NCBI GenBank assembly: GCA_964446625.1
Contig: CAYUPH010000005.1
Location: 1,432-65,431, forward strand
DNA length: 64,000 bases
Direction: 5' to 3'
From: an uncultured Candidatus Saccharibacteria bacterium
Lineage (GTDB): Bacteria > Patescibacteriota > Minisyncoccia > Phycocordibacterales > CAIRYW01
Shown one piece after another: positions 8,088-63,785 of the stretch (within the stretch, counting starts at the first letter, position 1; each line of letters starts with the position of its first letter). The position numbers and the translations under genes are program-made. The notes under the pieces were generated by a model. It had not been told where the DNA came from, did not search any database, and saw nothing but the letters and a program-made list of their open reading frames with translations.

Positions 8088-10694
8088 ATGCCAAAGACTA
8101 TAAAAGAGTATATTGAAGGGCTACGGCAGTATAACCCTGGAATAACTGATACTGAGATTACAGAGTATCTTATTTCAATTGGAAAAAATGCTGAAGAAGT
8201 AAAAAACTCATTAGTCCCAAAAGTAGAAGACGCACTTCCTGCTGCTCTGCCAGAAGTAGTACTTCCGCCTAGAGTAGAATCAAGTACACCTCTACCTTTG
8301 GAGGGGAAAGTACCACAGGAAATTTTGATAGACAAACCTCTTGTTGAAGCACCTAAAGAAGAGATAAAAAAACCAAGCGACTTTTCAGTTGATAAACTCC
8401 TTCAAAACGCTTCATTTCACACAGACTTTTCTCCAAAAATAACAGAGACAGTTGTAGCACCCGAAGTGCCCAAGGCACCGCTTGTTCCAAACAGTGTTAC
8501 TGCTCCAGCTTCTCCAAACTCAGAATCAGAAAACACAGGTTTCGTATCAGGAGAAGCTCCAAAAGAATTTACATACCCGGCAAAGGCTCCTGCTTCACCT
8601 GAAGAAAAGTACAGCGAAGCTCGTTTTGTAAGTGAGACGGTTATTGGTCCGGCTAAGCCAATGTCTACTCCATTCCAAGGTTCAAACAATAATCCAGTAA
8701 GTGGAGGTGGAGCTCCTGTCCCTCAGCAAATGGCTAAAGAAGGTAAAACACTAAAAGTGTTAATTGTAATTGTAGTCATCCTTCTTGTTTGCGCTCTTGG
8801 AGGACTTGGGTATATTTATCGCGATAAAATAAGTAGCCTTTTCTCAGGAGGAGAGATTCTTACAAATGAAAATCTTACTTCTAAACTATTTGACGGTTTT
8901 TCTAAGCTAAAAAACGGAAAAGAAACTGGTTTTGTTGAAATGAGTGTAGAAAATAAAAAGGAGGGGATAAAAACATTTGAAGAAGCCTATTCAAATAGTG
9001 GAGCTCTTGTTTCGTTTAAAAAAGATGTCCAAAAGTTTAAAGAAATAAAAGGTGTTCTTGGGAGTTTAAATACTTATTTTTATCGTAACAAAAAATATCC
9101 ATTAAATGCAGAGGATGCGGGAATAGTAATAAAGGATGAATTGGGCCTCGTTTACAAATCCTCTGCTGATCAGAAGGATTTTTTGCTTGAGACGTCTTTT
9201 GAGTCACTAGATATGATCCATACTTTAAAAAATTACCAAAGTACAGAAGACAAAACAAAGATTCAAATAACAAGCAAAGATTTCTACACTTTCTCCAATT
9301 TGAATTTCGATGAGATAGATCCGTTTATGATTTCAGGGACAGCTTCCTTTTTTGCCTCAAGCGCGTCAGGGTCAAGTGGAATGAAAGCTCGCTTAGATTT
9401 TGATGCTACAAGTGGTGAAAGTGACGGAATGCCTCTTTTTGATGTGTTTACAAAGTTTGCTTTTTCGGGAGATGAGTATGATTTCAAGCTCGCCGGATCG
9501 GCGCGTTATGTAAAAGAAGGATTGTTTTTAAAACTTTCTGAGAGCCCCTCTTTTTTTGGTGACTTTTCAAAGATAAAAGATACATGGATATATCTTGATC
9601 CAAAGGAAGAGTTTGATCCCTTTGGAAAAGGTTCAAACTTTTTTGAAAATTTAAGTAGTGAGAAAATCAAAGAGACGATTTCAAAAACAAAAGATGAAAA
9701 GACAGAAAAAATACTTCGCATTTTTGATGAGGAGTCCTTCATACAAATTGAAGGTGAGCCAGTTAAAATAAAAACTGCGGATGGTAAAGATGCATATGAA
9801 TACACACTTAAAATGCATATGGAAAAACTTCCTCAAATATACCCTAAAATTGCACAGGAGCTAAAACTTCCCGAATCATTTCTTGAGGAAAAGCTGTCCC
9901 TTCCACTTTCTGTTCTTTATCTCAAGTATCTTTCTGATAACCAGACCTTTAAAGTTGCTTTACTCAAAAACGGAACGGTTGTAAAAACTGATTATGATTT
10001 TATTCTTTTGCCGTCTCAAACCGGGGGAGTTCAAAACAAACAAGTTCGTTTTTCATACAGGAGCGAACACACATTACCCGAGGGAGGAGTAAATATTCAA
10101 AAACCAGATCTTTATATTACTCAAACAGATGCATACTTAAAAATTGCTGGGCTCACTCTTACAGAGTTTAAGTATCAAAGGCAAAGAGCAGCGATTTCGC
10201 AAATTATTCTTTCTCTCAAAACATATAAATCCTTTACGGGCGCATTTCCAAAACAGCTTTCTGATTTACTTACTCCAGTTAATATGAAAAACGGAAGCTC
10301 AACTATTAAGGGCGAAGCGTTACTTAGATCACTCCCAAAAAATGTGTATGAAGGTAAGGAGATAGTTTATAAAACAGATGAGAAAGGAAGTTTTTCCTTG
10401 AGTTACTACATTGAAATACCAAACAAGGAAGAAGCTTCTCGTAATGTTCCTTTTTATACAGCCCGTCCTAAAAACATCACTGCACTTGCAACGGTTCCGG
10501 GTATCAATACTGCCACAGAAACAGTTTTCTCTTTAGAAGCTGAAGCGGAAGCTTTGGTAGATACAGATAAAGATCTTCTCTCTGACTCACTCGAAGAGTT
10601 TATGGGAACAAACAAGCTCATGAAAGACACAGATGCCGATGGGCTTTCTGACTACTCTGAATTTATAAGTGGTGGGGACCCTCTAAAGAAATAA
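8088..10694 (+). CDS. hypothetical bitopic membrane protein (868 aa): Ser/Pro-rich cytoplasmic N-terminus, single TM, large extracytoplasmic domain with C-terminal acidic DxDxDG-like motifs
   Basis: TM helix LKVLIVIVVILLVCALGGLGYIY at about aa 222-245. C-terminus DTDKDLLSDSLEEFMGTNKLMKDTDADGLSDYSEF resembles Ca-binding repeats. Confidence 0.6.
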   Translation: MPKTIKEYIEGLRQYNPGITDTEITEYLISIGKNAEEVKNSLVPKVEDALPAALPEVVLPPRVESSTPLPLEGKVPQEILIDKPLVEAPKEEIKKPSDFSVDKLLQNASFHTDFSPKITETVVAPEVPKAPLVPNSVTAPASPNSESENTGFVSGEAPKEFTYPAKAPASPEEKYSEARFVSETVIGPAKPMSTPFQGSNNNPVSGGGAPVPQQMAKEGKTLKVLIVIVVILLVCALGGLGYIYRDKISSLFSGGEILTNENLTSKLFDGFSKLKNGKETGFVEMSVENKKEGIKTFEEAYSNSGALVSFKKDVQKFKEIKGVLGSLNTYFYRNKKYPLNAEDAGIVIKDELGLVYKSSADQKDFLLETSFESLDMIHTLKNYQSTEDKTKIQITSKDFYTFSNLNFDEIDPFMISGTASFFASSASGSSGMKARLDFDATSGESDGMPLFDVFTKFAFSGDEYDFKLAGSARYVKEGLFLKLSESPSFFGDFSKIKDTWIYLDPKEEFDPFGKGSNFFENLSSEKIKETISKTKDEKTEKILRIFDEESFIQIEGEPVKIKTADGKDAYEYTLKMHMEKLPQIYPKIAQELKLPESFLEEKLSLPLSVLYLKYLSDNQTFKVALLKNGTVVKTDYDFILLPSQTGGVQNKQVRFSYRSEHTLPEGGVNIQKPDLYITQTDAYLKIAGLTLTEFKYQRQRAAISQIILSLKTYKSFTGAFPKQLSDLLTPVNMKNGSSTIKGEALLRSLPKNVYEGKEIVYKTDEKGSFSLSYYIEIPNKEEASRNVPFYTARPKNITALATVPGINTATETVFSLEAEAEALVDTDKDLLSDSLEEFMGTNKLMKDTDADGLSDYSEFISGGDPLKK

Positions 10695-10742: not shown

Positions 10743-13700
10743 ATGTATAGGAGAAAGAAAGTAGTACTTTTATTTTTTATTTTGTTTTCGCTTTTTACAC
10801 ATACACCACGCGTTTATGGAGTTGATGCATGGTGGGATGCTTCGTGGCAAAAAAGAATAAAAATCACATTTGCAAACGCAGGAAGAGCAGAGAACCTTAC
10901 AAACTTTCCTGTTCTCGTTTCTCTCTCCTCATCTCGTATCGATTTTTCAGATGTTAACTCAAACGGAAGTGATCTTCGTTTTGTGGATGCAGATGGTACT
11001 ACGGTACTAGATTACGAAATTGAAAAATGGAACCCCTCTGGTACCAGTAGTGTCTGGGTTCGTGTTCCTCAAATCGACGCTTCTTCAGATACAGACTATA
11101 TTTATCTCTATTATAAAAATGCAGGAGCAAGCAGTGGTGCAAATCCTTCTGGTGTTTGGGATAGTAGTTATTTGTCGGTACTTCACATGGGGGACAACCC
11201 TACCTCAAGTGGTCCTCAGCAAGATTCTACAGCAAACAATAGTGATGCGACGTCGATTGCATTAAGTGCAACAACAACAGGTGCTATTGGGGATGCGCTC
11301 GATTTAAACGGAACAACTCAATATGTTCAGTATGCAAGCACTACTTTACCCACTCCGCTTAACGCTGGAACGGTGGAGGTAATTTATAATCCTGATACAT
11401 TTGCATCCGATGTAAACGGAAGGTATTTATTTACAAAAGATAAGTCAGGAACTTATATGGGGGAGTGGCGACTCATGCTTGGTAGTGAGTCTGCTGCGCC
11501 GGCTCAAAGCAATAAACTTGCTTTTCGAATTGAGTGTCCGACTTCGCTTGGAGGAAACGGAAATGCGTGGGCAGTTGTTTCTGATATTGCACCACAGCTT
11601 GCAGGTGGCTGGTATTCTGCAACAGCGGTTTGGAACAAAGCAGGGGGGGCGGGAAACATGAAGCTCTATTGGAACGGAACAGCAACAGGAACCCCTTACC
11701 TTAACACTACTGCTGTTGCCACAGCTGATCCAACCTGTGCAATGGAAGTAAGTGGTGAAAAACCAGAAATTGGAAGAAATAACGGTAAAACAACCCAGGA
11801 CGGATATTTTGATGGTCAAATGGATGAATTTCGAATTTCAAATGTTGTAAGAAGTGCTAACTGGATTAATGCAACCTATGCTTCTAGTTTTGATACTTTA
11901 AACACATATGCTTCAGCGGAGACTCCTCCCGACACCACCCCTCCCGTAATCTCAAGCGTTGCCTCTACAACCGCAGTAACAACAGCAACTGTTACGTGGA
12001 CAACTGATGAATCATCAGACTCTGCGGTATGGTACGGCACTCTCTCTGGTAGCTACACAACCTCAACAACAAGCGCATCCCTCGTTACAAGCCACAGTCT
12101 AGGTCTCACAGGACTCTCTGCAGAATCAACATACTACTTTGTTGTTGTATCTAAAGACGCTTCAAACAACACTTCAACTTCATCTGAATACACTCTTCTT
12201 ACTACCGCAGCTCCCGATACAACAGCCCCTGTTATCTCTTCTGTTGCGACAAGTACCACATCTACAACCGCAACAATTACATGGAGTACAAATGAAAATG
12301 CAACATCAACTGTAAATTACGGTACAACTTCAAGTTATGGATCTGCGTCAACATCTGCATCCTTTACCACTTCACACTCAATTACACTCACCGGACTCTC
12401 TCCACTTACAACTTACCACTTCCAAGTATCTTCTGGAGATTCTTCTTACAACTACGCAACAACAAGTGACTATACAGTGGTGACGGGGGCGTCGACACCT
12501 TCTGCTCCAACGAGTCTTGTTGCAACTGGTTATGATGGTAAGGTAAATGTAAAGTGGACTAATCCTGGAGGAACAATTACCGACTATGCTGTGGAGTACA
12601 AACTTTCTTCAGACTCTGTTTGGTCAATGTTTAGTGACGGCGTTTCAACCGCTACAAGTTCAATTGTCACAGGTCTTACAAACAACTCAGCATATGACTT
12701 TCGTGTAACTACTATAAACAGTGGAAGTTACAGTGCATCTTCTTCTCCTGTTTCCGCAACTCCTCAAGTGGTAATTTCTTTTATAAGCCCAACAATTACA
12801 GGAGGAACATCGACTACCTCTACATCTATAACAGGATATGCTTCTTCTACAATAGCGACGCCAAGTTATATGACTTTCCGTCTTGAAACGAATGGAGGAA
12901 CCCTTGTGTCAGAGGCTACAACCACAACAAGATATGGTGACTACAATATTTCTAATTTAGCTACGACAACAAATAAACAGGATCTATCTATTACCGGAGA
13001 TCTATCCGGAGTCGCGTATGTTCCAACTACAGATACACTTTTTACAATTCACAATAATCAAAATGTTATCCACGAAGTAACAAGGGCGGGAGTAAATGTA
13101 AGGACAATAACATGTTCAAGTTGTAACGATGCGGAAGATATTACACTTGTTTCAAGTGTTGCCTCAACAACTGTTGGCGGGTATGATCACACATTTCTCA
13201 TTTCAACAGAAGATGTAGACACAACTAACCACCAGGTTTTTCGCGTCGTTATTCATTCAACAGGAGCAGCGACTGTAAACCGAACTACTTACTATTCAAC
13301 AGGTATAAGTAGCTCACCTTACACAAACAACGGCTTGGAGGGAGTCGCATACAATTCAAATACAGGTCACTTTTATGCAGCGCTCGAAGGTCAGCAAAAC
13401 GATACAGGAGAACCGAAATTATATGAAGTTACACCAGGAAACATTGCGACACATAGTGCGACAAATCAAAGGATTTGTACTAATTTAAATTTTAGAGATT
13501 ACACAACAACTGATGCTACTCGTTTTCCAGCAAGTCCGGGTTATGCTGATATTTCCGGTTTGTATTATGAGGCAACAAACAATCATCTGTATGTTCTCTC
13601 TCATATGGGAGACAAAATGCTTGAGCTCGATATTTCCGACACTTCAAACTGTGTAGTTTTGAGACAAAAAGGAGTGGTAACACGAGCAGATAGTGGATCA

Positions 13701-16232
13701 AACTTTCTGTTTGAAATGCCCGAAGGAATTTCATGGGACTCAACAGGAGAGTATTTATATGTAGGAACCGAATCCGACTATTGGTCTGTGTGGCGCACAA
13801 CTTCCTATGGAATGAGAAATACATTTTCAGGTCTCTCAGACGGTTCATATAATCTGTATGCAAGTGTCACAGATACAGATGGTATCACTTCAACAACAAC
13901 TGCTCGTTCATTTACAGTGGGTAGTGATGTAACTGCACCTTCAATTTCTAGCGTTGCTTCTTCTACGGATGCTACATCTGCAACAATTACATGGAGCACA
14001 AACGAAGCAGCATCTTCATCGGTACGTTTCGGTCTTTCTACTGCTTACTCTTCTGGTGTTTCTACATCAAGCGGTTCAACAAGTCATTCGGTCAACCTTT
14101 CAGGACTTAATTCAGGTACGCTATATCACTTTGCTGTTTATGCTGCCGACGCTTCAGGGAATAGCGCAACAACAACTGATTATACTTTTACAACAACTTC
14201 AGCACTCGACACCACCCCTCCCGTAATCTCAAGCGTTGCCTCTACAACCACAGTAACAACAGCAACTGTTACGTGGACAACTGATGAATCATCAGACTCT
14301 ACGGTATGGTACGGCACTCTCTCTGGTAGCTACACAACCTCAACAACAAGCGCATCCCTCGTTACAAGCCACAGTCTAGGTCTCACAGGACTCTCTGCAG
14401 AATCAACATACTACTTTGTTGTTGTATCTAAAGACGCTTCAAACAACACTTCAACTTCATCTGAATACACTCTTCTTACTACCGCAGCTCCCGATACAAC
14501 AGCCCCTGTTATCTCTTCTGTTGCGACAAGTACCACATCTACAACCGCAACAATTACATGGAGTACAAATGAAAATGCAACATCAACTGTAAATTACGGT
14601 ACAACTTCAAGTTATGGATCTGCGTCAACATCTGCATCCTTTACCACTTCACACTCAATTACACTCACCGGACTCTCTCCACTTACAACTTACCACTTCC
14701 AAGTATCTTCTGGAGATTCTTCTTACAACTACGCAACAACAAGTGACTATACAGTGGTGACGGGGGCGGATACGACAGGTCCTACAATTTCTAATATTTC
14801 AGTGAGTGAAACTTCGAGTGGAGGAACTATTTCATGGACTACTGATGAACTTGCTTCTTCACTTGTAGCGTATGGACCAGGAACTACTTTTGGAGCAACA
14901 ACTACCGAAACCGATACTTCTCCACGAGTACTGTCTCATTCTGTAGTCTTTTCTGATCTTTTAGCTTGTTCAAGGTACTTCTTTAGAATTGCATCTGAAG
15001 ATGCTGCGGGAAATAGATCATATTCATCAGAAAGCGCTTTTTCAACAACTGGTTGTACAGGGTCAGCTAGTATTGAAGAAGTAGAAGTTGAAAATCTAGA
15101 CGTTTCAACAGGAGGTGCACTTTCAGTTGGGGGAAGCGGTCAACAGATAACTTTAGACATACCAGCAGATGCGACTGCTACATCTTCATCTCTTACATTC
15201 CAACTAAAAATTATTTCTGATAGTAGCGTTATTGATTCTATTAGTACTCCTGCAGACAAATCGGTTGCAGAGGGACATATATATGATTTGAAGGCATTCA
15301 TAAATGCCACAACTACACTTTCAACTTTTGATGAGCCTCTCACTATCACACTCTCGTATGATGATAGTGATGTGCGAGGAGTGTCTGAGTCGTCACTTTT
15401 AATTTATCGATATGATAGCGGTTCTTGGACACCTTTGTCTAACTGTTCCGTAAATACTTCGGCAAACACTATAACTTGTGAGACAGATCATTTCTCAGTT
15501 TTTGGTCTCTTTGGAACTACCCAAAGAAGTAGTAGCGGTGGCGGAAAAAAAGGAGGGAGTTCAAATAAACCAAAAAACACAGATAATACTGTCGCTACTT
15601 CTACTCCAGCGCTAAATAATCCGGTAGTAAATATTTCTGTGTTTACTAAACTACTTGTACTCGGCACTGTTGATACAGAAGTTCTTACGCTTCAGAGGTT
15701 TTTAAACCGTGATCCATTAACTCGAGTTGCAACAACTGGTGTCGGGTCTCCCGGATTTGAGACTTCCAGATTTGGAGAACTTACAAAAGAGGCGGTTATA
15801 AAATTTCAGATTAAAAATGGTATTATTGCTTCTAGGGAAAGTGTTTCTGCCGGAGTTGTCGGACCTCAAACTCGCCTCAAACTAAATTCACTTATTACTG
15901 ACACTTCTACAAGCCCAGTTGTAACAACTCCGAGCGGTCCCGTTGCTCTGGTGCCTTCAAACCAGGTTCTCACAGAGAACTTAGTGCTTGGAACTATAAG
16001 TCCACAAGTTAAAATACTACAACAATTTTTAAACCAGGATTTATCGACTCAGATCGCTCAAAGTGGACCAGGTTCAAATGGGCAAGAGACAGAAAAATTC
16101 GGTTCTCTTACTAAGGAGGCAGTTATTAAATTCCAAATAAAATACGGAATTATAAAAGATAGAACAGACCAATTTGCAGGAACAGTAGGCCCAAATACAC
16201 GTGAGAAGATAAATCTTCTTTTAAAAAAATAA
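10743..16232 (+). CDS. giant secreted cell-surface protein (1829 aa): signal peptide, DUF2341/LamG-like lectin region, multiple Fn3-like modules, C-terminal two peptidoglycan-binding (PG_binding_1) domains
   Basis: Signal peptide MYRRKKVVLLFFILFSLFTHTPRVYG. WWDASWQKRIKITF (DUF2341-like start). Repeated TxAPxISSVAxxTTxTxATITWxTNE Fn3-like modules. C-terminal LVLGTVDTEVLTLQRFLNRD...KFQIKNGI and LVLGTISPQVKILQQFLNQD...KFQIKYGI (PG_binding_1-like, x2). Confidence 0.8.
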   Translation: MYRRKKVVLLFFILFSLFTHTPRVYGVDAWWDASWQKRIKITFANAGRAENLTNFPVLVSLSSSRIDFSDVNSNGSDLRFVDADGTTVLDYEIEKWNPSGTSSVWVRVPQIDASSDTDYIYLYYKNAGASSGANPSGVWDSSYLSVLHMGDNPTSSGPQQDSTANNSDATSIALSATTTGAIGDALDLNGTTQYVQYASTTLPTPLNAGTVEVIYNPDTFASDVNGRYLFTKDKSGTYMGEWRLMLGSESAAPAQSNKLAFRIECPTSLGGNGNAWAVVSDIAPQLAGGWYSATAVWNKAGGAGNMKLYWNGTATGTPYLNTTAVATADPTCAMEVSGEKPEIGRNNGKTTQDGYFDGQMDEFRISNVVRSANWINATYASSFDTLNTYASAETPPDTTPPVISSVASTTAVTTATVTWTTDESSDSAVWYGTLSGSYTTSTTSASLVTSHSLGLTGLSAESTYYFVVVSKDASNNTSTSSEYTLLTTAAPDTTAPVISSVATSTTSTTATITWSTNENATSTVNYGTTSSYGSASTSASFTTSHSITLTGLSPLTTYHFQVSSGDSSYNYATTSDYTVVTGASTPSAPTSLVATGYDGKVNVKWTNPGGTITDYAVEYKLSSDSVWSMFSDGVSTATSSIVTGLTNNSAYDFRVTTINSGSYSASSSPVSATPQVVISFISPTITGGTSTTSTSITGYASSTIATPSYMTFRLETNGGTLVSEATTTTRYGDYNISNLATTTNKQDLSITGDLSGVAYVPTTDTLFTIHNNQNVIHEVTRAGVNVRTITCSSCNDAEDITLVSSVASTTVGGYDHTFLISTEDVDTTNHQVFRVVIHSTGAATVNRTTYYSTGISSSPYTNNGLEGVAYNSNTGHFYAALEGQQNDTGEPKLYEVTPGNIATHSATNQRICTNLNFRDYTTTDATRFPASPGYADISGLYYEATNNHLYVLSHMGDKMLELDISDTSNCVVLRQKGVVTRADSGSNFLFEMPEGISWDSTGEYLYVGTESDYWSVWRTTSYGMRNTFSGLSDGSYNLYASVTDTDGITSTTTARSFTVGSDVTAPSISSVASSTDATSATITWSTNEAASSSVRFGLSTAYSSGVSTSSGSTSHSVNLSGLNSGTLYHFAVYAADASGNSATTTDYTFTTTSALDTTPPVISSVASTTTVTTATVTWTTDESSDSTVWYGTLSGSYTTSTTSASLVTSHSLGLTGLSAESTYYFVVVSKDASNNTSTSSEYTLLTTAAPDTTAPVISSVATSTTSTTATITWSTNENATSTVNYGTTSSYGSASTSASFTTSHSITLTGLSPLTTYHFQVSSGDSSYNYATTSDYTVVTGADTTGPTISNISVSETSSGGTISWTTDELASSLVAYGPGTTFGATTTETDTSPRVLSHSVVFSDLLACSRYFFRIASEDAAGNRSYSSESAFSTTGCTGSASIEEVEVENLDVSTGGALSVGGSGQQITLDIPADATATSSSLTFQLKIISDSSVIDSISTPADKSVAEGHIYDLKAFINATTTLSTFDEPLTITLSYDDSDVRGVSESSLLIYRYDSGSWTPLSNCSVNTSANTITCETDHFSVFGLFGTTQRSSSGGGKKGGSSNKPKNTDNTVATSTPALNNPVVNISVFTKLLVLGTVDTEVLTLQRFLNRDPLTRVATTGVGSPGFETSRFGELTKEAVIKFQIKNGIIASRESVSAGVVGPQTRLKLNSLITDTSTSPVVTTPSGPVALVPSNQVLTENLVLGTISPQVKILQQFLNQDLSTQIAQSGPGSNGQETEKFGSLTKEAVIKFQIKYGIIKDRTDQFAGTVGPNTREKINLLLKK
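11931..12491 (+). repeat. copy 1 of a 561-bp intragenic direct repeat (two Fn3-like modules)
   Basis: Nearly identical to 14208-14768. Only about 2 mismatches seen (ccgcagta/ccacagta, tctgcggt/tctacggt). Confidence 0.85.
14208..14768 (+). repeat. copy 2 of the 561-bp intragenic direct repeat
   Basis: See copy 1. Spacing between copies is 2277 nt, in frame in both. Confidence 0.85.
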
Positions 16233-19872: not shown

Positions 19873-20643
19873 ATGGAAGAATTTAATTTTGTAAGACATG
19901 GCTCAAAAATGAAAGCAGATGAAGTAAGGGTTCCAATTAAAGAATCTGGACTCAGTTCTTCACAACAAGAAAAGTGGAAGGAGGCGGTAGAGAGGCTTAA
20001 ACTTGAGGATCCAGAAATCAATTATGACTCTTTGGTGAAAATTGAAGCCCTCGCGCAAGATATATGTAGTCAATTACCAGAGAAGGCTTTACTCATATTT
20101 AACTCTACCAATACTCCTCGAACTAAATTAACCGCTGACTTTTTGTCCACTTCAGTTTTTGAAGAATCCAAAAAGCTAGGTAAAGATATTAGGGTGGCTT
20201 ATATATGGGAACCAAGTTTGAGGGCTAAAGAAGATGGTGCTCTTATGAGAACTTCAGAGAGTATTGGTATACCACTTATGTTAAGACTTATGGAGGAGGT
20301 GGAAGAAAATGATGATAAAAGTTTGCATATGTATTTAACTTCAGGTAAAGGTGCTTTTGCTCACCCGAAAGAGGATGAATTGGTAATGAAAGCTGTGAAC
20401 AGAGATTTGGCAAGCGAACCCTCATTTTTCAAAAACAGAGCAGCAGTGTTGAAAGGTCAAATGGATCGTATTAGAGAATCGTTTCCTGATAAAGATTTAC
20501 CACTTTATTTCTACGGGATAGGTCATCATGGAAGTCTAATAGCTCTAGATGTCGCATTTAATGGAAGAGAGAAGTATAGTTCTGTTGATGAGATACCACA
20601 ACCTCTTAGTGTATGGGGGGTAAACTTAAAAAATGAAAACTAA
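19873..20643 (+). CDS. histidine phosphatase superfamily (phosphoglycerate-mutase-like branch) protein
   Basis: N-terminal catalytic RHG motif (FNFVRHGSKM) and C-terminal GIGHHGSLIALD (second conserved His region). 256 aa. Confidence 0.5.
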   Translation: MEEFNFVRHGSKMKADEVRVPIKESGLSSSQQEKWKEAVERLKLEDPEINYDSLVKIEALAQDICSQLPEKALLIFNSTNTPRTKLTADFLSTSVFEESKKLGKDIRVAYIWEPSLRAKEDGALMRTSESIGIPLMLRLMEEVEENDDKSLHMYLTSGKGAFAHPKEDELVMKAVNRDLASEPSFFKNRAAVLKGQMDRIRESFPDKDLPLYFYGIGHHGSLIALDVAFNGREKYSSVDEIPQPLSVWGVNLKNEN

Positions 20644-21658
20644 GCTTATAAAATCATTCACTAGAGAATTTCCATTGATACATGTTCAAATGTGGGGCAA
20701 AAGATACGCTACAGAATTTTTTGGAGAAAAACTTCCGCATACTCCTATTTATGTTTATCTCTTAAAAGATGGGCTTGTTACTGCATACAGAAATCCTGCA
20801 GGGCAAGCTAGCATTGTAAATCCAATTATTAGGGCAAAACTCGATAGTGATCCGGATTATATTAAAAAGTTTGTAGATCAGAAATCTGAAGTCTTGGAGC
20901 GCTTGATTAAAATAAATGAAGCGAGTGAAGTGTCTCTTGAAGAATTTAAAAGTTACCTAAAAGATCTATTTGATTATTGGCAGATACATTATATTTCTCA
21001 ATTTTTACCATTAGATGAAGGAAGATTTACCAAGGAAGAACGAGATCATGCTCTTGCTCTTCGTAAAACTATAGATCAAGTTATCCATAACTCTTGGAAT
21101 TCAATAACCCCGATATTAAAAAGACTTTACCCAGACTTAGGTGAACTTGTTGCTTATATTGCATGGGATGAGCTTTTTGATTCAAAGATACCAAATATAT
21201 TAGAGTTGATGAAAAGAGAGGTTGAAGGTGTTCTTATTTATAATGGTGATATTGTGACTAAAGAAGAATTAAATGAATGGGAGGAGAAAGATAATTTTGA
21301 AGTCGAATGGGATAATGAAATTGTTGAAGAAAAAGAAATTGCTGGTCAGATTGCTTGCTCTGGTAAAGTGACCGGCAATGTAAGAATCATTTTAAAAAAA
21401 GACGACATGGTTAATTTTAAACATGGAGAAATTCTCATTTCGTATATGACAATGCCTGCTTTTATGCCTGCTATACTTAAAGCTACTGCCTTTATTACTG
21501 ACGAAGGAGGAATCACCTGTCACGCTGCAATAGTTGCCCGTGAGCTCAAAAAACCCTGTATAATTGGCACCAAAATCGCCACAAAGGTGCTGAAGGACGG
21601 GGATTTGGTAGAGGTAGATGCTGAGAAGGGAATTGTGAGAATAATTGAAAGGAAATGA
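20633..21658 (+). CDS. protein with unknown N-terminal domain (about 230 aa) and C-terminal PEP-utilising-enzyme mobile (phospho-His swivel) domain
   Basis: C-terminal [48 protein letters not shown] is the PEP-utilizers swivel-His signature (catalytic His in CHAAIVARE). Confidence 0.65.
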
Positions 21659-22761
21659 AAAAAAGCTTAGGCAAAGAAATATTCAATCCATACCAAGTTT
21701 CAATGACGGAATGGTATGCATCGCTTGGAAAGCAGAAAAAAGCTGAAGTGATTCGCTATGAAGACAATACAAAAGATGAGCGCCTAGAAGTGCTCTTTCA
21801 AACAATTGGACTAGAGTACGAAAGGCCAACAGATTTTGAAGCAACAGCGCTTCTCTCAAAGGATAAAGAGTTCGTTGCTTTTCTAAAGTCGAAAAAAAAC
21901 GAACTCTGTGCACTGAGACTTATTCCAAAAGAAAAGAACTTGCCAAAACTTCGTAGTCGGGGATTATCTGTAAATGATGTCTTTACAAAGTGGTTTCCAA
22001 AACAAAAGATAGATGCAAAAAAGTACATTGCTTCTTTTAGACCGCACGCGGGAACTTACCCACTTTCGATTATCTTGGTTGTAAATAAAAAAGGGATTTT
22101 TGGCCAGACAGTTGTGGGGCAACACGCACAGCTTTCTCAAGGTGAGACAAAAAGACAGACAACTGAGTTTGTCTACAAATTCGGTAAGTGGGAGTGGAGA
22201 AACAAAACAACAAAATCAGAGCGGGTAATAAAAGACATTGTAAAGAGTATTCAAGTTTTAGATTTGAGAAAACGACAAACTCTCTCAAAAAAAATAAACG
22301 CAAAATTTACTCACAATTTTCTGGAGGGGTACTACGAAGCTATTTTGTGGAAAGATGGGGTGATTCGATTTTCAGATTTTAATAGACTTTTGTATAAAGA
22401 TATTTCTCTGCCAAATTTAGATGAAAGAAAAGGATTAAGTGGAGTGTCAGTCTATAAAGGTAAGATAAAGGGAAGAGTGGGTATTATTTCCTCTCAAAAT
22501 ATACTTAAAAAAGCTTTTCAAAAAGGTTCTGTTTTGGTAACACAAAACACTGATGTTCGCTTCCTGCCTCTTATGAAAATCGCGAGTGCAATTTTGACAG
22601 ATAAAGGAGGACTCCTCTCCCACGCCGCAATCGTTGCCCGTGAGCTCAAAAAGCCATGTATAATTGGCACCAAAATCGCCACAAAGGTGCTGAAGGATGG
22701 GGATTTGGTAGAGGTGGATGCGGAGAAGGGGGTGGTGCGGGTTTTAAAAAGGAAGGAATAA
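21655..22761 (+). CDS. paralogous protein with a different N-terminal domain (about 260 aa) and the same C-terminal phospho-His swivel domain
   Basis: C-terminal [48 protein letters not shown]. The last ~110 nt are about 94% identical to the 3' end of the upstream gene. Confidence 0.65.
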
Positions 22762-44987: not shown

Positions 44988-45011
44988 GCTTTTTATATGT
45001 GGTAAAATGTG

Positions 45012-45342
45012 TGGGTACACAGATAGTCGCGCAAAGCATTGCTTTGTGAGGAAAGTCCGAACACATAGCCTTTTAAGTAAGGCAAGGTAGCGGGTAACTC
45101 CCGCCTGGAGTAATCTTAGAGGTGCGAACAGAGACGCTTTCTTTTGAAAAGAAGGAAGCACCCGTAAGGGTGAGCTTTTGTGGAAACACAAGAGGTGCAA
45201 CGGCTAAATCCTTACCCATGTGCAAGGCCGTGTCCGCCATGTGCGGAAGTGCCGCTAGAGGTGTTTGGCAACAAGCATCCCAGATAAATGACTATCGTCC
45301 ACTTTGTGGATACAGAATTCGGCTTATCGTGTGCAATATCGA
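45012..45342 (+). ncRNA. rnpB: RNase P RNA (bacterial type A), rnpB
   Basis: Conserved blocks GAGGAAAGTCCGAACAC (P4 5' strand, cf. AGGAAAGUCCGGGC), GGGTAACTCCCGCCTGGAGTAA, and ACAGAATTCGGCTTATCG (P4 3' strand, cf. ACAGAACCCGGCUUA). Preceded by a TAAAAT -10 and followed by a terminator. Boundaries approximate (+/-10 nt). Confidence 0.8.
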
Positions 45343-52098: not shown

Positions 52099-52170
52099 TT
52101 GCTTAGTAGCCCCCGTAGTTAAATGGATATAACAGTCCCGTCCTAAGGGATAGTTGTAGGTTCGATTCCT
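52099..52170 (+). tRNA. tRNA-Arg (anticodon CCU), CCA not encoded
   Basis: Hand fold: acceptor GCCCCCG/CGAGGGC (one C-A mismatch at 5:68), D arm GTTA/TAAC with AATGGATA loop, anticodon stem GTCCC/GGGAT with loop gtCCTaa, T arm GTAGG-TTCGATT-CCTGC. Confidence 0.55.
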
Positions 52171-52289
52171 GCCGAGGGCACAAAAAAGCGAAGTGTATTT
52201 TGTGGCTCCGAGTAAATAAGCTATTTATCCTTTGTGGAAAATCAGAAGTTTTTAAATGATAAAAGTAAAATAAAAAAACCACTTTACCT

Positions 52290-53887: not shown

Positions 53888-53963
53888 GCCAAGGTAGCTC
53901 AGTTGGTAGAGCATGTCCCTGAAGAGGATGGGGTCGCCGGTTCGAGCCCGGCCCTTGGCACCA
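53888..53963 (+). tRNA. tRNA-Phe (anticodon GAA), CCA encoded
   Basis: GCCAAGG-TA-GCTC-AGTTGGTA-GAGC-A-TGTCC-CTGAAGA-GGATG-GGGTC-GCCGG-TTCGAGC-CCGGC-CCTTGGC-A-CCA. All stems pair. Confidence 0.85.
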
Positions 53964-59197: not shown

Positions 59198-59372
59198 GCG
59201 GTTAATATAGCAGAAAAGTAGAAAATGGGGTAGGAGCCTTGTTTTAGGATGATTTTTAGATAATCCACAGAAGCAAATTTTAGTGTATTAAAAAAGTATT
59301 AATTCTGTGTTAAAATCGAAAGAAAATGTTGCACAAATCTTTTATTCAAAATTTTTACCTTCTTTTTTACTA

Positions 59373-62300
59373 ATGAAGAAAGAGAGGAAAAAAACAAGGA
59401 GAATATTTGCAATTATTGCACCGTTATTCTTTGAAAGAGAGAAAGGGATTAGTTTCACAAAAGTGAAAGAAGCTTCTTTTCTTGCCTGCATTTTTGCTTG
59501 TTTTCTGTTTCCATTTGCTTATGCAGGAGATATGCCAAGTGTGCCAAACTCGGATATGTGGGTGACAAACGGTACGGTGTATGCAGTACAAACAGATGGT
59601 TCGACAACATATATTGGTGGAAGCTTCACATATGTGGGGCCAAGGACGGGAAATGGTGCCCCAATCAATATTTCTTCTGGTACAGTTACTTCAGGGTATG
59701 AGAATATAAATGGCGTTGTGAGAGCTGTTGTTTCAGATGGATCAGGAGGTTGGTATATTGGAGGGGATTTTACACGAGTTGGGAGTTTTACAAGAAATAG
59801 AGTTGCTCATATTTTATCAGATGGTTCTGTGGATTCGAGCTTTAATCCGAACTCTGGAGGAGCAGTGTATGCACTGGCTTACGATGCTGGAAATTCATTG
59901 CTCTATATTGGTGGAAATTTTATCACTATGAGTGGCTCGACGAGAAATTATATTGCAGCTGTAAATAGTTCCAATGGATCATTATCATCATGGAACCCAA
60001 ATGCAGGCGGTGCGGTTCTTTCTTTAAGTCTAGATTCAGCAAATTCTCAAATATATGTAGGTGGAAGCTTCACGACAATTGGTGGACAATCTCGAAGTCG
60101 AATCGCAGCTTTGAGTACATCTGCCGGAACAGCAACAGCGTGGAACCCGGGCGCGAATAACTCTGTAAACTCTATTGTTGTTGATTCAAGTAATTCTCTA
60201 ATTTATATTGGTGGGGATTTCACTACTGCGGGAGGGCAAACACGAAATTACATTGCAGCCCTTAATTCTTCGGACGGCACAGCAACATCGTGGAATCCTG
60301 CCAGTGGCAGTACTGTTAATTCTCTTGCATTAGATTCAGCTAATTCTCTTATATATGTGGGAGGAGCGTTTACAACTATTGGTGGTCAAACCCGAAACCG
60401 TATTGCCGCCTTAAGTACGGCAGACGGCACAGCAACTGCGTGGAATCCAAACTCTGGGAGTGCTGTGTATCGTGTTGTTCTAGACTCAACAAACTCTCTT
60501 GTTTATGCGGGTGGAAACTTTACTTCTATTGGTGGTCAGACTAGAAACTATGTCGCTGCACTAAGCACTTCCTCAGGTTCTGCTACTTCGTGGAATCCTA
60601 GCCCGGTTAATACCGTTCGTTCCCTTACACTTGATTTGGCTAACTCACAGATATATGTTGGAGGTGACTTTAGTACAATTGGTGGTTCTACAAGAAATAA
60701 CATTGCAGCACTCAATGCCTCGACTGGTTCTCTTACTTCTTGGAATCCAAATGCTGGTAGTACTGTATATGTTCTTACTTTGGATTCAGCAAATTCTCTT
60801 CTCTACGCTGGTGGTGATTTTACAACTATCGGAGGACAAACACGAAACAGAATCGCAGCATTGAGTACTTCCGCAGGAACAGCAACCGCCTGGAATCCTA
60901 ATGCGGGTAGTACAGTGTATGCGTTCAGTTTAGATAATTCAAATTCACTCATATATGTGGGAGGAAACTTCACAACTATCGGAGGACAAACACGAAACAG
61001 AATCGCAGCATTGAGTACTTCCGCAGGAACAGCAACCGCCTGGAATCCTAATGCAGGTAGTACGGTGTATTCGCTTAGTTTAGATAGATTGAATTCACTC
61101 ATGTATGTTGGAGGAAACTTCACTACTATCGGAGGACAAACACGAAACAGAATCGCTGCCCTTAATACTTCAGATGGAACAGCAACAGCATGGGATGCAA
61201 ATGCGGGAGGCACTGTGTATGCAGTAGCGCTCGATACAGACAATGCAGTCGTGTATGCTGGAGGAGCATTCACAACTATCGGAGGGCAAACTCGAAATCG
61301 ACTTGCTGCTTTGAGTCCTTCAGGGGGGACAGCAACGGCGTGGAATCCGAATGCAAATAGTACAGTATACGTATTGCTTCTTGACTCAAACAATACCGTA
61401 CTCTATGTAGGAGGTGATTTTAGTACGATTGGAGTCCAGACCAGAAATAAGGCTGTAGCATTTAAAACTTCCGATGGAAGTACGAACACATGGGATCCAA
61501 ATATTAATAATACAGTGAGAGCGTTTGGGCTTGATCCAACGAATTCGATTCTGGGCGTAGGAGGAGCGTATACTTCTATGGGAGGTAGTAGTCAGCTTTA
61601 TTTTGCCTCATTTGTAAATACTTTTACGATCACAGCTTCTGCTAGTGCGCATGGTACAATTACTCCCCTCGGTGATACTGTTTTAAATGGTGGAGATGAT
61701 CAATCTTATACTATAACGCCCGAAGCACATTATCACGTGGAAGATGTGCTGGTTGATGGTGTGTCTGTTGGTGCAGTTTCAACATATACATTTAGTAACG
61801 TATCAGCGGACCATACGATTTCTGTAAGTTTTTCAATCGATCAACAAACACTAAGTTATAGTGCGGGTGCCCACGGTTCTATCTCAGGAGATATATCGCA
61901 AACAATTGATTATGGGACCAACGGAACTGCGGTTGAGGCAGTAGCTGACTCAGGCTATCATTTTTCAGATTGGTCTGATTCATCGACTGCCAACCCGAGA
62001 ACTGATACAGGTGTAACCGACGATATATCTGTTACTGCCAATTTTGTAATTGACGCCGACATAATTCCGCCAACGGTTTCAATCACTTCGCCTTCTGATT
62101 CAGGTGTTGTCTCGGGGGTGGTGGCATTTTCGGCCGACGCTTCTGACAATATTTCTATTGAAGGGGTAAAGTTTTATTCGAATTCTGCTCTTATTGAAGA
62201 TGATACATCGTATCCTTATTCAGTATCTCTTGATACAGGCTTGATGAGTGATGGAAATTATACTCTAAGTGCAGTTGCAAGAGATACATCAGGCAACTAT

Positions 62301-63785
62301 GCAACTTCAACGAGTGTATTAATAACAGTAGATAGTACTAGTCCAAATATTTCTTCAATTTCCGTCACTGCATCTGAAACAACTGCTGATATTTCTTGGA
62401 CGACAGATGAACCAGCCGACTCACTTATTGATTTTTCTCCTGTTTCTACTTTTATTGCATCTTCTACACCTGACACGAATTTGGTAACAACACATTCAAT
62501 TAGTCTTTTAGAACTTAACTCATGTACAACTTATTATTATCGTGTGAAATCTGTAGACGAAAACAATAATGTTTCTTTTTCTCCTTCGTCAACATTTACT
62601 ACGACAGGGTGTACAGGAAATGCTGAAATCCTTGATGAGACTAATGGTGCAATCACATCACCCGGCGGGTCTTTGTCTTTGCTTGAGGCTGGCACTGGAG
62701 TATCGCTTACAGTTCCTTCAGCGTTCAAATCCGGAGTTTCTACCGCCTACTTTCAGATTAAACAGTTAGAAAGCCTGGATTTCTTAGCTGTTGTTTCTAC
62801 TCCACCTAATGTATCGCTTGTGTCAGGTTATATATATAACCTTGTATCTTTGCCAACAGCAACATCTTCTCTTACTTTATTTGATAATCCGTTAACAGTA
62901 AGTATAGTGTACGATGATGCTGATGTTGAGTCGTTGGATGAGTCTACGTTTACTATATATCGTTATGATGAGGGTGTATGGACACTGCTTTCTAACTGCT
63001 CTGCACATGAGGACACAAACACTGTGACATGTGAGACGTCTCACTTTTCAGAATTTGGACTTTTTGGTCAAGCTCAGTCAATTGATGTAACACCAGGTTC
63101 TTCTTCTGGCACTATAAGTGAAGGAATTCATTATGGTTGCAAAGACTCTAGTGCTTTGAATTATAATTTCTTTTCAAGGCACAAGCAGGATCTTTGCAAG
63201 TACGCAAATAAGGAGATTTCACAGAGTAAGTATAGTTTCAACAGAGATCTGGAATTAGGCATGGTAGGAGATGATGTGCTTGCACTTCAAAAAGTGTTAA
63301 ACTCTCTCGGATTTATTGTCGCACATTCAGGACCAGGATCACCGGGCAATGAGACAAACCTATTTGGTTCCGCAACAAAGTCTGCGCTTATGAGATATCA
63401 AGCATCCATGAATATTTTTCCTTCTAGAGGCTATTTTGGGCCAATGACACGCACAAGAATACAAGAATCGGCTGTTCAGGATGTGATCCAAGCTACTTTG
63501 AGCACTACCCCAGAATCTTCTGTAGAAACAAGCATAAAATTAAAATCATTTTCAAGAGATCTTTCAATTGGTATGACAGGAGAAGATGTAAGGATGCTTC
63601 AAGTTTTTCTTAATTCGAATGGGTATTTAGTGTCTTTGGCAGGAGTTGGATCGCAAGGACATGAAACAAATTATTTTGGAGAAAATACCAAAAAAGCATT
63701 AATACGATTCCAAACCGCTAGTAGCATTACTCCTGCGTTGGGATATTTTGGAAAAGTGACACGAGATTTTGTTAATTCTAAATAA
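59373..63785 (+). CDS. giant secreted cell-surface protein (about 1470 aa): signal peptide, about 14 tandem about-50-aa beta-propeller-type repeats, InlB-B-repeat-like and bacterial Ig-like domains, Fn3, C-terminal two PG_binding_1 domains
   Basis: Start at ATG 59373 (MKKERKK..., signal ...FLFPFAYAG) downstream of a TGTTAAAAT box that overlaps the track's TTG start at 59307. Repeats GGxFTTIGGQTRNRIAALSTSxGTATAWNPNAGSTVYxLxLDxxNSLxYV. C-terminal LELGMVGDDVLALQKVLNSLGF and LSIGMTGEDVRMLQVFLNSNGY (PG_binding_1-like). Confidence 0.8.
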   Translation: MKKERKKTRRIFAIIAPLFFEREKGISFTKVKEASFLACIFACFLFPFAYAGDMPSVPNSDMWVTNGTVYAVQTDGSTTYIGGSFTYVGPRTGNGAPINISSGTVTSGYENINGVVRAVVSDGSGGWYIGGDFTRVGSFTRNRVAHILSDGSVDSSFNPNSGGAVYALAYDAGNSLLYIGGNFITMSGSTRNYIAAVNSSNGSLSSWNPNAGGAVLSLSLDSANSQIYVGGSFTTIGGQSRSRIAALSTSAGTATAWNPGANNSVNSIVVDSSNSLIYIGGDFTTAGGQTRNYIAALNSSDGTATSWNPASGSTVNSLALDSANSLIYVGGAFTTIGGQTRNRIAALSTADGTATAWNPNSGSAVYRVVLDSTNSLVYAGGNFTSIGGQTRNYVAALSTSSGSATSWNPSPVNTVRSLTLDLANSQIYVGGDFSTIGGSTRNNIAALNASTGSLTSWNPNAGSTVYVLTLDSANSLLYAGGDFTTIGGQTRNRIAALSTSAGTATAWNPNAGSTVYAFSLDNSNSLIYVGGNFTTIGGQTRNRIAALSTSAGTATAWNPNAGSTVYSLSLDRLNSLMYVGGNFTTIGGQTRNRIAALNTSDGTATAWDANAGGTVYAVALDTDNAVVYAGGAFTTIGGQTRNRLAALSPSGGTATAWNPNANSTVYVLLLDSNNTVLYVGGDFSTIGVQTRNKAVAFKTSDGSTNTWDPNINNTVRAFGLDPTNSILGVGGAYTSMGGSSQLYFASFVNTFTITASASAHGTITPLGDTVLNGGDDQSYTITPEAHYHVEDVLVDGVSVGAVSTYTFSNVSADHTISVSFSIDQQTLSYSAGAHGSISGDISQTIDYGTNGTAVEAVADSGYHFSDWSDSSTANPRTDTGVTDDISVTANFVIDADIIPPTVSITSPSDSGVVSGVVAFSADASDNISIEGVKFYSNSALIEDDTSYPYSVSLDTGLMSDGNYTLSAVARDTSGNYATSTSVLITVDSTSPNISSISVTASETTADISWTTDEPADSLIDFSPVSTFIASSTPDTNLVTTHSISLLELNSCTTYYYRVKSVDENNNVSFSPSSTFTTTGCTGNAEILDETNGAITSPGGSLSLLEAGTGVSLTVPSAFKSGVSTAYFQIKQLESLDFLAVVSTPPNVSLVSGYIYNLVSLPTATSSLTLFDNPLTVSIVYDDADVESLDESTFTIYRYDEGVWTLLSNCSAHEDTNTVTCETSHFSEFGLFGQAQSIDVTPGSSSGTISEGIHYGCKDSSALNYNFFSRHKQDLCKYANKEISQSKYSFNRDLELGMVGDDVLALQKVLNSLGFIVAHSGPGSPGNETNLFGSATKSALMRYQASMNIFPSRGYFGPMTRTRIQESAVQDVIQATLSTTPESSVETSIKLKSFSRDLSIGMTGEDVRMLQVFLNSNGYLVSLAGVGSQGHETNYFGENTKKALIRFQTASSITPALGYFGKVTRDFVNSK
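59620..61590 (+). repeat. about 13-14 tandem 150-nt coding repeats; adjacent units 60826-60908 and 60976-61058 are identical over about 80 nt
   Basis: Periodicity of exactly 150 nt (50 aa). Produces a long spurious antisense ORF (60803..61393). Confidence 0.8.

Follow-up and report, generated by a model that had tools for sequence, protein, structure and literature searches.

In Patescibacteria, attachment to host cells is believed to depend on surface proteins. Fn3 domains have reportedly spread and been shuffled among bacterial extracellular enzymes, as Bork and Doolittle in 1992 and Little, Bork and Doolittle in 1994 are said to have described. The locus presented here resembles those cases in that whole modules occupy new positions in a bacterial extracellular protein without introns; those cases, however, are old and were inferred from diverged sequences, whereas here donor and copy are both present, at 99.6% identity, with junctions that can still be read.

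Several described groups of surface proteins share features with the protein encoded at this locus. For periscope proteins (SasG, Aap, Rib and the Sgo_0707 SHIRT arrays), it has been proposed that the high DNA identity of module repeats permits recombination within the gene and changes in length (Whelan et al. 2021, PMC8201768). Fibrillar adhesin-like multidomain proteins (Monzon et al. 2021, PMC8286594) have in common with it the stalk Fn3 domains, the putative binding domains (DUF2341, LamG and propeller) and the wall anchor. The DUF2341/Fn3 giant proteins of Patescibacteria match it in lineage and domain vocabulary, and large proteins of this group are thought to mediate adhesion or host interaction, although at 1829 aa the present protein is well below the >4000-aa proteins discussed for Patescibacterium (PMC11809585).

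The host gene and its domains

The window, meaning the whole 64-kb stretch of DNA analysed, contains a gene whose product carries, in order, a putative signal peptide, DUF2341, a LamG-like domain, fn3, a YjiK-type beta-propeller, an Fn3 array and two C-terminal peptidoglycan-binding domains. The earlier note had called this gene giant, but at 5.49 kb it is better described as large. The source is a Saccharibacteria-like (Patescibacteria) bacterium, and relatives of the protein were found in metagenome-assembled genomes (MAGs) of uncultured Saccharibacteria. The features of the gene are as follows.

10743-16232, + strand: host gene of a secreted wall-anchored multidomain surface protein, 1829 aa (ORF, translation, Pfam, identical protein on a second contig, syntenic orthologues P0004 and P0002)
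10743-10820, + strand: putative Sec-type signal peptide, MYRRKK-hydrophobic stretch-VYG/VD (read by eye from the translation)
10962-11156, + strand: DUF2341 domain, aa 74-138 (PF10102, 59.4 bits, cut-off 23.4)
11307-11867, + strand: LamG/concanavalin-like domain, aa 189-375 (PF13385 Laminin_G_3, 52.2 bits, cut-off 27.6)
11931-12491, + strand: copy A of the two-Fn3 cassette, derived/inserted, with modules A1 (11931-12212) and A2 (12213-12491) (repeat, PF16656, AF2, PDB matches, empty site in P0004 and P0002)
12492-12499, + strand: 8-mer TCGACACC adjoining the end of copy A (the same 8 nt span the left edge of copy B, 14206-14213)
12501-12758, + strand: canonical fn3 domain, aa 587-672 (PF00041, 45 bits, cut-off 25)
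12984-13772, + strand: SdiA-regulated/YjiK-type (phytase-like) beta-propeller, aa 748-1010 (PF06977, 79 bits, cut-off 21; PF13449, 29.7 bits)
13926-14207, + strand: Fn3 module Fx, aa 1062-1155, which opens the C-terminal array (PF16656, 35.2 bits; module and three-way alignments)
14208-14768, + strand: copy B, the ancestral/source cassette, with modules B1 (14208-14489) and B2 (14490-14768) (positional orthology to the 187-aa cassette of P0004)
14769-15059, + strand: Fn3 module Fy, aa 1343-1439 (PF16656, 32.7 bits; orthologues in P0004 and P0002)
15675-15875, + strand: first PG_binding_1 domain (PF01471, 25.1 bits, cut-off 23)
16002-16208, + strand: second PG_binding_1 domain (PF01471, 27.3 bits; missing from P0004 and P0002 in the alignment)

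The other ORFs of the region are short ones that overlap within the host gene, and an Rfam scan of the region returned zero RNA families. Like periscope proteins, the host protein is wall-anchored and has its head at the distal N-terminal end, on a stalk made up of folded modules: it combines a signal-peptide-like N-terminus, N-terminal DUF2341 and LamG domains and two C-terminal PG_binding_1 domains. Its predicted anchor is non-covalent, unlike that of LPXTG proteins. It also differs from periscope proteins in that the gene has only two identical copies, which are non-adjacent (offset 759 aa) and have the propeller between them; Tandem Repeats Finder detected no array in the gene, which thereby lacks the tandem organisation of that group.

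The duplicated two-Fn3 cassette

The ungapped diagonal scan at offset 2277, a repeat search and blastn agree on one single 562-nt direct repeat, 11930-12491 and 14207-14768, that is 99.64% identical with two mismatches. Its first base, a C, lies outside the codon-defined cassette (11931-12491 and 14208-14768; 561 nt, 187 codons). The offset of 2277 nt equals 759 x 3, or 759 codons, and both copies are in frame in the one ORF at 10743-16232 (+). Both mismatches are G/A differences at the first codon position within the first 94 nt, the first at 11973/14250 (GCA, Ala, in copy A vs ACA, Thr, in copy B) and the second at 12024/14301 (GCG, Ala, vs ACG, Thr), and are followed by 467 nt of perfect identity (12025-12491). 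On either side, identity falls to background within one base in the diagonal scan. The copies are direct repeats on the same replicon, separated by a spacer of 1715 nt that encodes the propeller and other domains. No other long near-identical repeat is present in the 64-kb window, and the runner-up similarity within the gene is 77% over 62 nt (blastn). Chance is not a candidate explanation for the repeat. These comparisons, which include the self-comparison that the earlier note had proposed, uphold its description of a 561-bp direct repeat more than 99% identical (less than 1% divergent) with both copies in frame, and the peptide it quoted, with its A/T difference, is found in the translation.

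The cassette consists of exactly two Fn3 modules. It begins at the conserved module start D-T-T-x-P-x-I-S and finishes at a module end in the module alignment, and A1 and A2 score 31.1 and 38.1 bits, respectively, against a gathering cut-off of 30 for PF16656 (Pfam). The AF2 model of aa 393-589 (pLDDT 96.8) comprises two all-beta beta-sandwiches and conforms to the FnIII fold, a seven-stranded beta-sandwich of about 90-100 residues. The top 50 Foldseek matches in the PDB are all tandem FnIII pairs, with probability 1.00 and E-values down to 7.5e-10. The remaining Fn3 modules of the protein are 40-59% identical in the module alignment. The module boundaries, PF16656 scores, predicted model and structural matches all agree with the two-module Fn3 cassette that had been claimed earlier.

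The direction of copying can be read from the positional orthologues P0004 and P0002, which are 80% and 72% identical, respectively, to the host protein over the fn3-propeller region. A DNA_alkylation gene lies immediately or just upstream in each, and in P0004 the downstream G6PD and 6PGD genes are conserved too. Both carry the cassette at the downstream position (site B), and in both the linker at the upstream position (site A) is uninterrupted; Fx is missing from P0004 in the three-way alignment. Copy B and the P0004 cassette align without gaps over 187 aa, with 77% amino acid and 68.8% nucleotide identity, and the module tree places A1/B1 as sister to the first B-site module of P0004 and A2/B2 as sister to the second, at 77% amino acid identity each. 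Because the two closest orthologues carry the cassette downstream only, copy B is the source, and copy A was newly inserted with module-precise edges; on this comparison of sequences, the syntenic orthologues show that copying ran from B to A. At fourfold-degenerate sites, 0 of 135 differ between A and B, whereas 56 of 95 differ between copy B and the P0004 cassette. The duplication had been called recent, and this holds in view of the syntenic orthologues without an upstream copy and the zero synonymous divergence between A and B; as dated from these sequences, 'recent' is bounded solely by the split from orthologues that are saturated at synonymous sites.

A very recent intragenic segmental duplication, in which the 561-nt two-Fn3 segment was copied in frame from site B to site A, 2.3 kb upstream, is the probable origin of this repeat, with its module-precise edges, Fn3 fold, B-to-A direction and zero synonymous divergence. 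At this locus bacterial domain shuffling can be seen with unusual clarity: donor and copy are both present, the edges are precise, the direction is known and the junctions are unblurred by mutation. The locus also illustrates how quickly Patescibacteria surface proteins are remodelled. Relatives differ at site A, where 0, 1 or 2 Fn3 modules or a different domain may be found, and Fn3 module number varies across species. Proteins of this class in general gain and lose Fn3 modules rapidly, and the duplication is in keeping with that. Internal Fn3 repeats that are nearly identical are also common among them: in an ungapped off-diagonal scan, 33 of 120 homologues had internal repeats with at least 90% identity across 70 aa or more. 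The duplication is real, explained and ordinary, and leaves current understanding unchanged.

Gene conversion and assembly as alternative explanations

The two copies could instead derive from an older duplication and be held near-identical by ongoing intragenic gene conversion (concerted evolution), a reading that we consider improbable. Both differences are confined to the first 94 nt, with the other 467 nt perfect. Conversion can give such a pattern, because its tracts even out the interior of a repeat more than the ends, and the upper age bound comes from distant orthologues alone, whose overall identity in the best local BLASTP alignment is 58-69%. This clustering is weak at n = 2, however, with (94/561)^2 being about 0.03, or about 0.06 allowing either end; none of seven orthologous genes has an internal repeat above 82% at the DNA level, giving no sign of concerted evolution in the group, and no relative has a B1-type module at site A in the module tree. 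Conversion might also have acted without any new insertion, a tract from site B overwriting one or two earlier, diverged Fn3 modules at site A. Homology for such an event could have existed, as the A-site modules of several more distant relatives group near the B2-type clade, and one Fn3 is present at site A in P0009/L007, P0012/L009, L011, P0005 and P0006 and two in P0010. Overwriting is nevertheless very improbable: at both module boundaries, and precisely there, identity goes from 100% down to background; the flanks hold no residual Fn3-like sequence, and as linkers they can be aligned directly to the uninterrupted site A linkers of the two closest orthologues; and B1-type modules are elsewhere confined to site B in the module tree. 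A recent copy of the cassette from site B to site A remains the preferred reading.

Short-read assembly is a further concern, rightly raised in the earlier note, since repeat mis-traversal or a strain chimera in a short-read de Bruijn graph could have produced the two-copy structure. The contig naming points to SPAdes, all of the sequence evidence consists of short-read metagenome contigs that possibly share reads, and the related MAGs derive from co-assemblies. The perfect 467-nt stretch exceeds k-mer and read length, and the sequence is in no independent data set among the collections searched, where an exact 24-mer from the cassette end gave 0 matches in the genome contigs and 0 in the metagenome contigs, and where neither strain-level relatives or fragments nor length variants were seen; the databases hold no near-identical protein that is shorter or longer. 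A 251-aa query across both copy A junctions had a best match of 58% identity, in a candidate list that consisted of short proteins only and did not include the parent protein. Against an artefact, the structure has four distinct junctions (linker/R, R/fn3, Fx/R and R/Fy, with R the repeat) whose flanking sequences have no more than 8 nt in common, much less than any k. It follows that reads must contain each of the junctions, and the simplest genome with all four is R-X-R, with X the block between the copies. Both junctions of the insert are in frame and at domain boundaries, two copy-specific SNPs separate the copies, and two contigs with different ends agree: the second (ENA NODE_210, 53.6 kb) is identical over 25.5 kb, with the same two copies and the same two SNPs. 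An assembly artefact is unlikely, and we would give it very little weight beside a genuine duplication. How many times the 2277-nt unit occurs (2 or more) cannot be fixed by short reads and rests on graph logic and read pairs; at this locus, short-read assemblies may give a wrong copy number.

Possible routes of copying and predicted recombination between the copies

The insertion would have gone into a short, Pro/Thr-rich linker that joins the DUF2341-LamG 'head' to the fn3-beta-propeller, and its presumed effect is a spacer between head and propeller longer by two Fn3 units. Two routes may have produced the copy: illegitimate template switching during replication, or an in-frame tandem duplication of the 2277-nt unit with a subsequent internal deletion. 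The junctions have at most 1-2 nt of microhomology and bear no element hallmarks. A mobile-element origin was rejected, as the window lacks inverted repeats and the insertion has neither an associated recombinase or transposase nor a clean target-site duplication; the flanking heptamer CGACACC belongs to the copied sequence itself and does not have the phase that a simple insertion model requires. A foreign origin of the cassette was likewise rejected, its GC3 being 0.32 vs 0.27 for the whole gene and the cassette being vertically orthologous in relatives.

The direct 562-nt repeats (99.64% identical, 467 nt perfect) with their 1715-nt spacer also have the configuration of a deletion/amplification substrate. 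In-frame loss or gain of 2277 nt between the copies is a sound prediction from established biology: homologous recombination or single-strand annealing could delete the unit, leaving a predicted product of 1070 aa without fn3, propeller and Fx, and unequal exchange could add the same unit to give 2588 aa. Experimental repeat-mediated deletion substrates undergo deletion at about 1e-5 to 1e-3 per cell, and one mismatch cuts the rate about 5-fold (PMC4627823). The D. radiodurans tetA substrates, with 438-bp repeats 1479 bp apart and a deletion frequency of about 6.5e-4, have nearly the same geometry as the present locus, although they were engineered and selected (PMC4627823). Because recA mutants of D. 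radiodurans showed the same deletion frequency by single-strand annealing (PMC4627823), deletion need not be RecA-dependent, contrary to what the earlier note had supposed; zero RecA Walker-A motifs were found in the six frames of the 64-kb window. Since the 2277-nt unit bears fn3, the beta-propeller and another Fn3, contraction would remove a probable functional domain, not mere stalk, unlike the stalk shortening of periscope proteins. Such a deletion would be irreversible and therefore not a switch. There is a slim chance that the fn3-propeller-Fn3 block is excised or amplified in frame at appreciable frequency, giving a mixed population of propeller-bearing and propeller-less (or double-propeller) cells; if true, this would be contingency-like variation of host or surface interaction in an episymbiont-type bacterium, built from a non-tandem repeat.

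An unexpected feature of the junctions is the 8-mer TCGACACC, which stands directly after copy A and again across the left edge of copy B, and which fits none of the simple one-step models tried. It occurs only three times in the window, and an 8-mer match has a null frequency in the gene of about 0.4% per junction comparison. Microhomology models built on TCGACACC were rejected: a single template switch or unequal exchange between the two 8-mers predicts loss or duplication of block X rather than a copy of the cassette, and since the 8-mers are 1714 nt apart and in different reading frames, the product would be frameshifted. There is likewise a slim chance that this 8-nt head-to-tail signature is the mark of a particular template-switch route for copying and pasting whole modules in these genes. 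The hypothetical 'empty-site' junction was taken as GAGACTCCTCC joined directly to TTCTGCTCCA or to NTCGACACCTTCT. A 561-nt insert leaves a linker of 15 aa vs 12 aa in the orthologues; a hypothetical 570-nt insert (562 nt plus an 8-nt re-copy of the donor left edge), which would require a head-to-tail donor junction, would give the orthologous 12-aa linker exactly.

The duplicated cassette and its host gene

Comparison along the diagonal at an offset of 2277 nt gave unbroken identity between 11930-12491 and 14207-14768 except for mismatches at 11973 and 12024, and outside both ends the match frequency was at background at once. Repeat search and blastn agreed on a 562-nt pair of 99.64% identity, confirming the near-identical (>99%) direct repeat 2.3 kb apart that the earlier note had described and placing its divergence below about 1%. 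The two mismatches read G in copy A (upstream, 11931-12491) and A in copy B (downstream, 14208-14768), both at codon position 1 (GCA/ACA and GCG/ACG) and both nonsynonymous (Ala/Thr); the final 467 nt match without exception. At an offset of 759 codons, both copies keep the frame of one ORF (10743-16232). The earlier count of about two differences and the shared frame also hold. The repeat search returned no other long near-identical repeat in the 64-kb window, and the second-best blastn similarity within the gene was 77% over 62 nt.

This ORF encodes a single 1829-aa protein, whose N-terminus (MYRRKK, a hydrophobic stretch and VYG/VD in the translation) looks like a Sec signal peptide.

Domain order of the 1829-aa protein, from Pfam scans of the entire protein and of segments
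aa 74-138, DUF2341 (Pfam)
aa 189-375, Laminin_G_3 (Pfam)
aa 397-490 and 491-583, two PF16656-type Fn3 modules, copy A (Pfam)
aa 587-672, canonical fn3 (Pfam)
aa 748-1010, SdiA-regulated / YjiK beta-propeller (Pfam)
aa about 1027-1060, Ig-like remnant
aa 1062-1438, Fn3 modules Fx, B1, B2 (copy B) and Fy (Pfam)
aa about 1440-1600, stretch without assigned domain
C-terminus, two PG_binding_1 domains (Pfam)

When the six modules are aligned, both edges of the repeat coincide with module boundaries, the left one with the conserved opening motif D-T-T-x-P-x-I-S. AlphaFold2, given 32 homologous module pairs, modelled aa 393-589 as two all-beta domains (mean pLDDT 96.8), and a Foldseek search of the PDB with this model returned tandem FnIII pairs for each of the 50 best matches (probability 1.00). 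The reading of the repeat as a duplicated two-module Fn3 cassette is thereby upheld.

The relatives found among GTDB representative genomes all bear the title 'uncultured Candidatus Saccharibacteria bacterium', and other homologues carry the names Parcubacteria or Patescibacteria. By its domain order and these names, the 1829-aa protein belongs to a Patescibacteria lineage and is a surface protein that is secreted and bound to peptidoglycan. Large DUF2341/Fn3 proteins of this kind have a suggested role in adhesion or host interaction (PMC11809585), which would be the putative function here.

Direction, age and mechanism of the duplication

The closest homologues, P0004 and P0002, are 80% and 72% identical to the host protein over the block of canonical fn3 and beta-propeller; their best overall local alignments give 69% and 58%. 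The upstream DNA_alkylation gene adjoins P0004 and is one gene further off from P0002, and downstream of P0004 are G6PD and 6PGD; P0004 and P0002 are positional orthologues of the host gene. In each, the B1-B2 cassette follows the propeller (site B), and the LamG-to-fn3 linker, the site of copy A, is unbroken. In a tree of all modules, A1/B1 (the first modules of each copy) are sister to the first B-site module of P0004 and A2/B2 to the second, at 77% aa identity each, and all other relatives have B1-type modules at site B only. Because the orthologues carry the cassette only after the propeller, and given this placement, copy B is the donor and copy A has been newly added. In relatives further away, the linker contains none, one or two unrelated Fn3 modules or a different domain, and is therefore evidently a tolerated insertion point. 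P0004 has Ala at the first mismatch site (11973), as does copy A, pointing to a mutation in the donor, copy B, at this position.

Other gains are visible in the same comparison. The second C-terminal PG_binding_1 (16002-16208, the first being at 15675-15875), an older, diverged duplicate, was gained relative to P0004 and P0002, and Fx (13926-14207) relative to P0004, with a different Ig-like domain there in P0002; the gene is built up by several module additions, not by the cassette copy alone. Directly upstream lies an 868-aa ORF without a Pfam match (8088-10694, + strand). An 825-aa gene with a faint T2SSG (pseudopilin-like) match occupies the same position beside P0002 and is absent beside P0004, and the 868-aa ORF may be a functionally linked partner of the surface protein.

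Copy B aligns with the P0004 cassette without gaps over 187 aa, with DNA identity of just 68.8% and differences at 56 of 95 shared fourfold sites, near saturation, whereas copies A and B differ at none of 135. Since, in addition, seven orthologous genes read as DNA contain no internal repeat above 82% identity, the duplication is most probably recent, as the earlier note proposed, and lineage-specific. It may instead be an older duplicate homogenised by gene conversion; both mismatches fall within the first module, close to the 5' edge, but two sites are too small a sample for an argument. That the two-copy structure is an assembly artefact is very improbable, because the contig contains four distinct junctions with flanks sharing at most 8 nt, each of which a de Bruijn assembler needs reads to build, because cassette-block-cassette is the simplest genome with all four, and because the copies are told apart by two SNPs. 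The same structure is present on another contig (ENA NODE_210, 53.6 kb), whose ends differ and which is 100% identical over 25.5 kb; it may derive from the same source reads. The number of 2277-nt units, one or more, is beyond what short reads fix.

Copy A is bounded by ...GAG ACT CCT CC/C GAC ACC... on the left and ...GGG GCG/TCG ACA CCT TCT... on the right; identity extends past the cassette by one base only, and neither inverted repeats nor element genes were found. This pattern would fit either illegitimate, replication-based template switching or a two-step route in which the 2277-nt unit was duplicated in tandem, in frame, and then lost 1716 nt internally. The 8-mer directly after copy A (12492-12499), TCGACACC, equals the 8 nt across the left edge of copy B (14206-14213) and occurs only three times in the window; the chance of such a match is about 0.4% per comparison in this gene. 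The heptamer CGACACC occurs four times in the 64 kb, three of them at repeat boundaries (including 11930-11936). With the 8 nt counted in a 570-nt insert, the reconstructed ancestral linker is 12 aa, the length in both orthologues, against 15 aa in the 561-nt model. With these 8 nt included, copying would have had to re-start head to tail on the donor, which is not derivable from a simple one-step model.

Recombination potential and known systems

The spacing between head and propeller would now hold two additional Fn3 modules. The repeat is much longer than efficient repeat-mediated deletion requires: in D. radiodurans, engineered 438-bp repeats 1479 bp apart gave a median deletion of 6.5e-4, equal in recA mutants and about 5-fold lower in rate with one mismatch (PMC4627823). 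Recombination between the copies would drop 2277 nt in frame, giving a protein of 1070 aa without fn3, propeller and Fx, and unequal exchange would add a 2277-nt unit, giving 2588 aa. Contraction would be irreversible and cost a probable functional domain, which argues against simple stalk-length tuning. No length variants were observed, and the collections searched held no near-identical sequences.

Near-identical internal repeats (at least 70 aa, at least 90% identity) occur in 33 of 120 homologues, mostly within Fn3 arrays and frequently at a spacing of about 186 aa (two modules); a small number span other domains. In many homologues (P0023, P0018, P0033, P0037, P0020, P0044 and P0024) the offset is about 182-197 aa, equal to two Fn3 modules; such arrays thus seem often to be extended by pairs of modules rather than by single ones. 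The closest named concept, the Periscope Protein (PMC8201768), shares the anchoring and head-stalk logic, but its hallmark is a tandem array of highly identical repeats that the host protein lacks, and the locus should therefore not be classed with it. The duplication is real, explained and ordinary: a modular bacterial surface protein has freshly duplicated some of its modules. Its mode is already known, near-identical internal repeats being common among homologues. Its interest is modest: it captures domain shuffling cleanly and marks a site to verify with long reads.

Other features of the window

Another large surface protein (1492 aa; 59307-63785, + strand) shares the anchoring design of the 1829-aa protein. 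It contains ten 150-nt tandem units of 60-75% identity (59892-61522), which are DUF5122 beta-propeller blades, as well as Big_7, Flg_new_2, one PF16656-type Fn3 and two C-terminal PG_binding_1 domains. A 190-nt direct repeat of 79% identity (21465-21654 and 22565-22754), with a 127-nt core of 90.5% (21504-21630 and 22604-22730), joins two adjoining PEP-utilizers-domain genes (20633-21658 and 21655-22761), which resemble tandem paralogues sharing a patch that is conserved or has been converted. The RNA genes are ordinary housekeeping RNAs:

45011-45340, bacterial RNase P RNA class A (133.6 bits)
52109-52180, tRNA gene
53888-53960, tRNA gene
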